Made by a program: the position numbers and the translations under genes | NCBI GenBank assembly: GCA_951406725.2 | Contig: OX597816.1 | Location: forward strand, 166,656,001 to 166,720,000 | Reading direction: 5' to 3' | DNA length: 64,000 nt | Source: Octopus vulgaris | Taxonomy: Eukaryota | Notes under the pieces: generated by a model | Told to the model about the DNA's origin: nothing | The model's database searches: none | The model's input: the letters and a program-made list of their open reading frames with translations, nothing else | In this document: positions 1 to 63,703 of the stretch, piece by piece | Layout: each line of letters opens with the position of its first letter | How positions within the stretch are numbered: the stretch's first letter is position 1

Positions 1-179
1 GACGAACCAAAGTTCGGGTCTCGAAACAGAGACCACATGTTCCATTGAAGCCAATAACACTTGTGATTCTCATGCAACGTGCAAAGTTTTATCCGATGGT
101 TCATTTAAGTGTGTGTGCCCTAGTGAAGCTGTTGGCGGCGATGCCCTCAAAGGCGAAAATAATACCGGATGTATATTTG
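1..179 (+). CDS. EGF exon type A, unit 0 (5'-truncated by the window edge)
   Basis: [60 protein letters not shown]|gtaagt; 6 Cys; phase-1 donor. Confidence 0.9.

Positions 180-63703: not shown

Follow-up and report, generated by a model that had tools for sequence, protein, structure and literature searches.

What protein is built where a long array of EGF exons runs directly into tandem fibrinogen-like domains, and does it belong to a family that is already known? The arrangement lies in a 64-kb stretch of intron-rich Octopus vulgaris DNA (here called the window), which the preliminary description had read as 20 EGF or calcium-binding EGF (cbEGF) exons leading into three domains of the Caspr/neurexin IV type, the third incomplete. 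We found all 29 exons, every one on the plus strand, and the motifs that had been quoted for the domains (the P.(D/S)C...ID.D(G/N)... pattern) are present in the repeats. The 20 EGF exons lie between positions 1 and 38,960 and all are phase 1-1 with AG/GT ends. A regular expression located 19 of them (0 matches in the minus-strand control), and the EGF exon at 26106-26261, which the expression missed, was found otherwise. Pfam EGF models matched all six representative EGF segments that were scanned, four of them above the curated cut-off.

The EGF array closes with an ancestral set of five, consisting of EGF1 (26106-26261), EGF2 (28439-28561), cbEGF3 (30303-30428), EGF4 (32223-32330), and cbEGF5 (38841-38960). 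Upstream of this set are copies of ancestral EGF1 at 1-179 (an exon that starts one base before the window), 5284-5463, 6686-6835, 11899-12078, 13281-13430, 18724-18903, and 20220-20375; copies of EGF2 at 1930-2055, 8609-8734, 15204-15329, and 21578-21703; and copies of the calcium-binding EGF3 at 3047-3172, 9701-9826, 16326-16451, and 23940-24065. The nine further exons make up two whole repeats of the Caspr type and the start of a third: repeat 1 at 44266-51608 (exons 44266-44369, 46534-46691, 48357-48462, and 51410-51608), repeat 2 at 54603-59775 (exons 54603-54768, 57769-57892, and 59475-59775), and the start of repeat 3 at 62671-63703 (exons 62671-62754 and 63615-63703). Spliced by their coordinates, the 29 exons gave a stop-free frame of 1,382 aa. 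They were ~99% identical to a protein of Octopus sinensis, the repeat part matching it at 439 of 443 residues (P0002/P0186).

The EGF and fibrinogen-like exons belong to one gene, as had been proposed, given this single frame and contigs that join the two parts. Runs X1 and X7, which come from different studies and are presumed to be RNA, hold contigs in which 38840-38960 abuts 44266-44371; 121 letters lie on one side of the join and 106 on the other (record positions 863-983 beside 757-862, and 248-368 beside 142-247). None of the 24 runs listed is catalogued as RNA or carries a tissue label. Since the join is exact, in frame, and spans a 5.3-kb intron, we take it to be the spliced form; it was present in at least two of the four runs examined.

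When 200 kb was added on each side, the whole gene comprised 70 coding exons encoding 3,426 aa. The window is the middle of the gene and holds 29 of these 70 exons. In window coordinates, the coding region begins with a signal-peptide exon at -11,201, and repeats 3 to 7 followed by a VWD/TIL/EGF/Kazal/TSP1/cystine-knot part carry it to a stop near 156,430. The introns are GT-AG in 68 cases and GC-AG in one, the latter located at 127,071 inside the VWD/C8 region. From repeat 1 to the end of the protein, 2,340 of 2,368 residues were identical to O. sinensis. The domains are multimerized without LamG spacers, as first described, but they number seven rather than three, with four more lying past the window.

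An EGF stalk plus repeats is also only part of the picture. The full order is a signal peptide, 22 EGFs, seven repeats of 178 to 206 aa, three EGFs, a VWD unit with GDPH and CGLCG motifs, a C8-like cysteine-rich stretch (by eye), TIL, more EGFs, follistatin/Kazal modules, TSP1, and a cystine knot. Pfam VWD, TIL, and TSP_1 matched, VWD and TIL above their cut-offs, whereas Cys_knot (E 1.4e-4; 22.5 bits, cut-off 24) and Kazal_2 (E 0.004) fell under theirs; C8 matched only in the precomputed list of one flatworm homologue. There is a single VWD unit (residues 1729-1881 of the O. sinensis protein P0002), GDPH was present in all four proteins checked, and among PDB sequences FCGBP matched the C-terminal region best (E 5e-48). 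The knot has an odd number of cysteines (nine or seven) in a pattern conserved in 18 of 18 homologues. Extension of the model in both directions yielded a signal peptide and no membrane span (the maximal 19-residue hydropathy past residue 40 was 1.19), and no LamG or F5/8 (discoidin) Pfam match was obtained in P0001, P0002, or P0187, whereas neurexin IV (P0021) matched both. Nor was there a PTS tract (P/T/S at most 34% per 50 residues), a collagen helix (0 runs of five Gly-X-Y in the four proteins examined), or a TB (8-cysteine) domain in Pfam scans of P0001, P0002, P0014, and P0187. The frame contains 59 N-glycosylation sequons, and the prediction is of a secreted glycoprotein. Searches of the octopus's own genome returned this gene as the only locus among the matches listed, which is a lower bound.

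The assignment of the repeats to the Caspr/neurexin IV type was borne out by an HMM built from 10 domains of that type only, which matched all seven octopus repeats over nearly their full length (E 4e-21 to 8e-45; the reversed control reached 7 bits). Pfam matched none of six segments of repeat exons, phmmer with one exon and with P0001 against PDB sequences returned nothing matching the repeats, and at E 0.01 the octopus protein had no Fibrinogen_C match. Fibrinogen_C is precomputed for three mollusc homologues, and Pfam COLFI matches the Trichoplax and chiton homologues.

Structural modeling places the repeat closer to collagen than to fibrinogen. An AlphaFold2 model of repeats 1 to 6 of P0002, made from a 17-sequence alignment, reached a pLDDT of 80.5 and a pTM of 0.66. 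Foldseek returned human procollagen C-propeptides as the top match, with a probability of 1.0 over the whole 212-residue chain, and the VIA comparison with the C-propeptide gave Z 14.1 over 179 residues (3.7 Å, 13 to 15% identity). Fibrinogen, ficolin, and tenascin domains gave Z ≤7.5 over 86 to 127 residues. In a wide structure search of 48,161 chains, the C-propeptide was the sole chain above Z 8, the next best being 5.8. The model of a Caspr-type protein, P0147 (38% identity to mite neurexin IV), had the same strand order as the repeats and matched the same C-propeptide chain with Z 15.6 over 207 residues, at an rmsd of 8.0 Å with its EGF included. Each repeat is therefore predicted, from these models, to adopt the fibrinogen-type fold in its collagen C-propeptide (COLFI) form. 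Since both models match the C-propeptide best, the repeats and the "fibrinogen-like" domain of Caspr are better called COLFI-like; the original label was right as to the Caspr type, but the fold is nearer to COLFI (Z 14.1) than to fibrinogen (Z 7.5). No solved structure of the Caspr/neurexin IV domain was found in the searches made. In Gene3D, the Caspr domain and the COLFI domain already share a single CATH superfamily, and the repeats may therefore be flagged in existing automated annotation. The Caspr/COLFI-type domain behaves as a mobile module and largely escapes Pfam.

Within the repeats, an acidic hDxD loop, which corresponds to the calcium loop of COLFI, is retained at positions 1 to 4 and 6, partly retained at position 5, and lost at position 7. 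For positions 1 to 7 it was present in 13/13, 12/13, 11/13, 13/13, 7/13, 13/13, and 1/11 sequences, respectively.

The preliminary description had suspected an architecture specific to one lineage, but orthologues with the same architecture proved to be widespread among animals. With residues 808 to 1923 of P0001 as the query, 22 proteins matched among 7,243 candidates. All 17 long homologues (P0002 to P0018) had exactly seven repeats; these were the octopus protein, two Logan proteins, six gastropod, five bivalve, and two chiton proteins, and one from Trichoplax (the seventh repeat of P0007 is cut by the end of the record). Partial Macrostomum records (P0019 and P0020) held five and six repeats, and neurexin IV held one. 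A search of 1.84 billion representatives, in which 20 of the best 150 of 857 matches were given names, brought up further heptads, in Dreissena, in Babylonia, and in the nemertean Lineus, along with a partial Saccoglossus record of six repeats. The Lineus protein (P0024, 5,886 aa) carries its heptad at residues 698 to 2131, followed by 3,755 residues and the same knot tail.

The spacing of the repeats is kept along with their number. The cysteine-to-cysteine distances between successive repeats were 10, 10, 6, 10, 6, and 10 residues in 15 of 21 heptads, those of Trichoplax and Lineus included, and the other six deviated at one or two junctions, mostly by one residue at junction 4; the Saccoglossus junctions read 10, 10, 6, 10, and 6. 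Profiles specific for each mollusc position also picked the proper position for 7/7 repeats in Lineus, 6/6 in Saccoglossus, and 6/6 in the second chiton protein, for 5/6 and 4/5 in the Macrostomum records, but for only 2/7 in Trichoplax. Given this match of positions and the kept spacing, the heptad is older than the protostome-deuterostome split.

How Trichoplax came by its seven repeats was addressed with a quick tree that had few strong branches. Bilaterian repeats clustered by position, whereas those of Trichoplax were scattered (6 changes) and formed no single clade, its repeat 7 grouping with position 7 (SH-aLRT 92). An independent expansion to seven in Trichoplax is disfavored, because its repeats are not one clade and its junction pattern is identical. 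For the same reasons we prefer, without regarding it as proven, that the Trichoplax heptad shares ancestry with the bilaterian one, and the heptad is probably older than the placozoan split.

To judge from the homologues compared, the long EGF stalk is the only part of this architecture that is an octopus trait. Most mollusc homologues have five N-terminal EGFs (30 to 31 cysteines), compared with 16 in O. sinensis isoform X1 and 22 in the O. vulgaris genome. The extra octopus EGFs are copies of EGF1 to EGF3, arranged in units of EGF1, EGF1, EGF2, and EGF3. They lie on the plus strand in a tandemly duplicated block that spans window positions 1 to 24100 and reaches ~9 kb upstream of the window, with a period of ~6.6 kb and copies that are 90 to 98% identical, introns included. 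Copies of the EGF2 and EGF3 exons were 98 to 99% identical versus 86 to 87% in the flanking introns, and EGF1 copies were less uniform (92% versus 88%). Since the EGF2 and EGF3 exons are kept better than the introns around them, this difference suggests that they are in use. The octopus array is a clean, recent example of a stalk lengthened by duplication of symmetric exons. An upstream EGF2-type copy, at about -6372 to -6248, carries a one-base frameshift, and the matching EGF is intact in O. sinensis isoform X1; the octopus copy is either a dead, skipped exon or an assembly error. One duplicated unit also contains a (GAA) array of 275 copies (16755-17578), which is shorter at the equivalent sites 3908-4120 and 10562-10628.

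The architecture, which the preliminary description had not recognized, had in fact been glimpsed once, in a limpet mucus proteome, without its repeats being identified. P-vulgata_2 is a limpet pedal-mucus protein to which Kang et al. (2020; PMC7333891) assigned only vWFD, 11 EGF, 2 Kazal, and 1 TSP1 domains, leaving the central 1,350 residues unannotated; neither "fibrinogen" nor "contactin" occurs in the main text of that paper. Its cDNA (Unigene46021) corresponds by eye, with few substitutions, to Patella caerulea P0006 from the first methionine through the repeats, the printed cDNA ending before the knot. P0006 is 36% identical to the octopus protein over the full length and agrees with it in domain order, in the number of repeats (seven), and in junction pattern. 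The limpet order of signal peptide, EGF, seven repeats, EGF, VWD-TIL, EGF, Kazal, and TSP1 is thus that of the octopus, although the limpet protein begins with five N-terminal EGFs rather than 22. Three findings of that study (PMC7333891) speak against a leading part in adhesion: the transcript level of P-vulgata_2 was low (FPKM 28), the protein was assigned by prediction to the "cell membrane," and it does not figure among the five probes whose in situ pattern was specific. O. sinensis and O. bimaculoides identifiers of the protein were absent among the rows listed from the supplement of an octopus skin-mucus proteome (PMC10138644), and the portions of PMC4595640 and PMC11452194 that were available do not describe a seven-repeat protein. 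No description of the heptad and no mention of its accessions turned up in the literature searched, a body that leaves out most subscription journals; within it, the seven-fold COLFI-like core appears to be undescribed.

The octopus protein resembles a VWD/cystine-knot gel scaffold, yet it falls outside the Caspr, mucin, fibrillin, and collagen families. Its repeats share 22 to 30% identity with the domain of mite neurexin IV, which lies in the 19 to 35% range that they share with one another, and both have ten cysteines, the same order of strands and helices, the same best fold match, and a preceding EGF. In Caspr and neurexin IV, however, which are membrane proteins, the domain occurs once, flanked by EGF and LamG, whereas the octopus protein is predicted to be secreted and has seven abutting copies without the F5/8 (discoidin) domain, the four LamG domains, the transmembrane helix, or the cytoplasmic tail. 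The procollagen C-propeptide (PDB 5k31 and 4ae2) is the best structural match of the repeat, but fibrillar collagens have a Gly-X-Y helix that the octopus protein lacks, and since the repeats stand in tandem in one chain, they cannot serve in selecting chains for a triple helix. The cysteine set of COLFI also differs from that of the repeats.

FCGBP, von Willebrand factor, gel-forming mucins, otogelin, and alpha-tectorin share with the octopus protein a VWD-TIL unit with GDPH and CGLCG, and a C-terminal knot with a spare cysteine is common to the octopus protein and the VWD/cystine-knot glycoproteins. Unlike these relatives, it has a lone VWD unit in its C-terminal third, a heptad in mid-protein, and neither a PTS domain nor the three N-terminal D assemblies of the gel-forming mucins and von Willebrand factor. 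Two database names mislead. "Fibrillin-like" reflects the EGFs only, there being no TB domains, and "zonadhesin" reflects the VWD unit only. Flatworm ap1 (Mlig-ap1) shares EGF, VWD, C8, and TIL content with the octopus protein. According to the available parts of three reports (PMC8621496, PMC9229212, and PMC6410801), ap1 has a cohesive role shown by RNAi and a core of 1,553 aa with a C-type lectin domain, a VWD unit, and 17 EGFs. On that partial description, we rejected ap1 as the orthologue, as its core is too short for a 1,350-aa heptad and its domain list differs; the Macrostomum homologues P0019 and P0020 are a protein other than ap1.

What, then, might the protein do? We give slightly better than even chances to a role as a secreted, dimerizing, two-headed, multivalent cohesive cross-linker of mucus or another extracellular gel, a reading drawn from sequence, structural models, and analogy. 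The presence of the limpet counterpart in foot mucus makes a role in a mucus or matrix gel likely, and the extracellular adhesive function that was first suggested is plausible. The models predict a defined arrangement of the repeats, and the fixed 6- or 10-residue junctions would pack all seven into one rigid unit, as judged from the pTM and the junction lengths rather than from coordinates. Such a heptad could offer several nonidentical binding faces, and binding at repeats 1 to 4 and 6 may depend on calcium. Von Willebrand factor and mucins form tail-to-tail disulfide dimers, and the unpaired knot cysteine would likewise join two chains tail to tail into a two-headed cross-linker. FCGBP cleaves itself at GDPH, and VWD units assemble into networks in FCGBP and mucins; the octopus VWD unit may self-cleave at its GDPH and so aid the assembly of a network. 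The EGF array would act as a spacer, which the octopus lengthened from 5 units to between 16 and 22 through duplication of phase 1-1 exons. Counting against a role in mucus are the origin of the mucus link in one limpet study, the absence of the octopus identifiers from the listed rows of the skin-mucus supplement, and the combination of one VWD unit with no PTS region, which is unlike the gel-forming mucins.

An alternative that we consider rather unlikely, if the strongest of the rivals, is that the protein helps to build an internal or apical matrix (connective tissue, membranes of the tectorin/otogelin kind, or egg or shell coats) and that its presence in limpet mucus is incidental. The collagen C-propeptide-like fold fits such a role, as do the low expression and the missing specific in situ signal in the limpet foot, and the protein is conserved in animals that do not share limpet-style adhesion (scallops, clams, a nemertean, a hemichordate, and Trichoplax). 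A multivalent pattern-recognition lectin of innate immunity, akin to the fibrinogen-related ficolins, tachylectin, and FREPs, is improbable. The fold does bear a weak likeness to ficolins and tachylectin 5A (Z 6.0 to 7.0), relatives pair the domain with C-type lectin, SUEL, F5/8, and SRCR domains, and one chiton and one flatworm homologue contain C-type lectin domains, but only ~100 to 130 residues align to fibrinogen-type chains versus 179 to the C-propeptide. Moreover, there is one octopus locus among the matches listed, unlike the expanded families of immune lectins, and the two octopuses share 99% identity across the repeats, unlike fast-evolving immune lectins.

The remaining two readings have very little probability. 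For a membrane adhesion receptor like Caspr or neurexin IV, the EGF-then-repeat junction is as in neurexin IV (BLAST to P0021 498-821, E 2e-14), but the full gene model contradicts it, with a cystine-knot end and without LamG, F5/8, or a hydrophobic span. Similarly slight is the chance that separate genes encode the EGF array, the repeats, and the VWD part or that the EGF duplication is an artifact of assembly. Database models do split the gene into P0001 (1,923 aa, ending inside repeat 7) and P0187 (784 aa), omitting several exons, and one upstream duplicated EGF exon is frameshifted. Against this, contigs join EGF to repeat, the 70 exons form one frame across 68 introns of the GT-AG type and one of the GC-AG type, and single long records exist in O. 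sinensis, in Logan assemblies, and as limpet cDNA. The duplicated copies also differ by 2 to 10%, with the contrast between EGF2/EGF3 exons and their introns given above, and the O. sinensis array is long as well, with 16 EGFs.

The conservation of both the count of seven and the junction lengths from Trichoplax to octopus suggests a defined three-dimensional machine rather than a free array of repeats. We tentatively propose, at somewhat less than even chances, that the heptad forms one rigid supradomain, in which nonidentical C-propeptide-like domains of a single chain are arranged as a ring or helix, that it was fixed before the split of placozoans and bilaterians, and that an ancient, so far overlooked family of mucus or matrix scaffolds is built around it. 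Were this so, the "fibrinogen-like" domain of Caspr and neurexin IV would be a mislabeled, mobile COLFI-type binding module, to be recast as COLFI-like, and its ligand could be sought with a soluble seven-fold array. Animal mucus or matrix gains a candidate ancient component. The half of a limpet adhesive-mucus protein that was previously without a domain assignment now has one.

The domain turned up in several proteins of other composition. A tandem pair ends the vertebrate proteins P0040, P0042, and P0055 (sturgeon, shark, and frog), which carry Xlink, CUB, and SRCR domains and are named "versican core protein-like" or uncharacterized, and P0048, P0053, P0173, and P0127 contain the domain as well. 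An Acanthaster VWD/SUEL/F5-8 protein has three copies, a jellyfish "fibrillin-2-like" protein has four among EGFs, a brittle star protein combines several with lectin domains, and an LRR-7TM receptor has two.

The introns of the octopus gene contain repetitive DNA of several kinds. Tandem repeats of 167 to 184 bp, SINE-like by eye, occupy 25438-25798, 42677-42985, and 43822-45197 of the window; contig depth over them was very high in each of the four runs examined. Of three intronic retroelement-like frames, the one at 53306-53902 (plus strand) gave a weak zf-RVT match (E 0.005), and those at 52691-53377 and 37080-37700 (both minus strand) had no Pfam match. By eye, a mariner-like transposase frame lies in the last intron (155,050-155,787), and LINE-like reverse transcriptase frames lie just beyond the stop codon (157,405-160,558).
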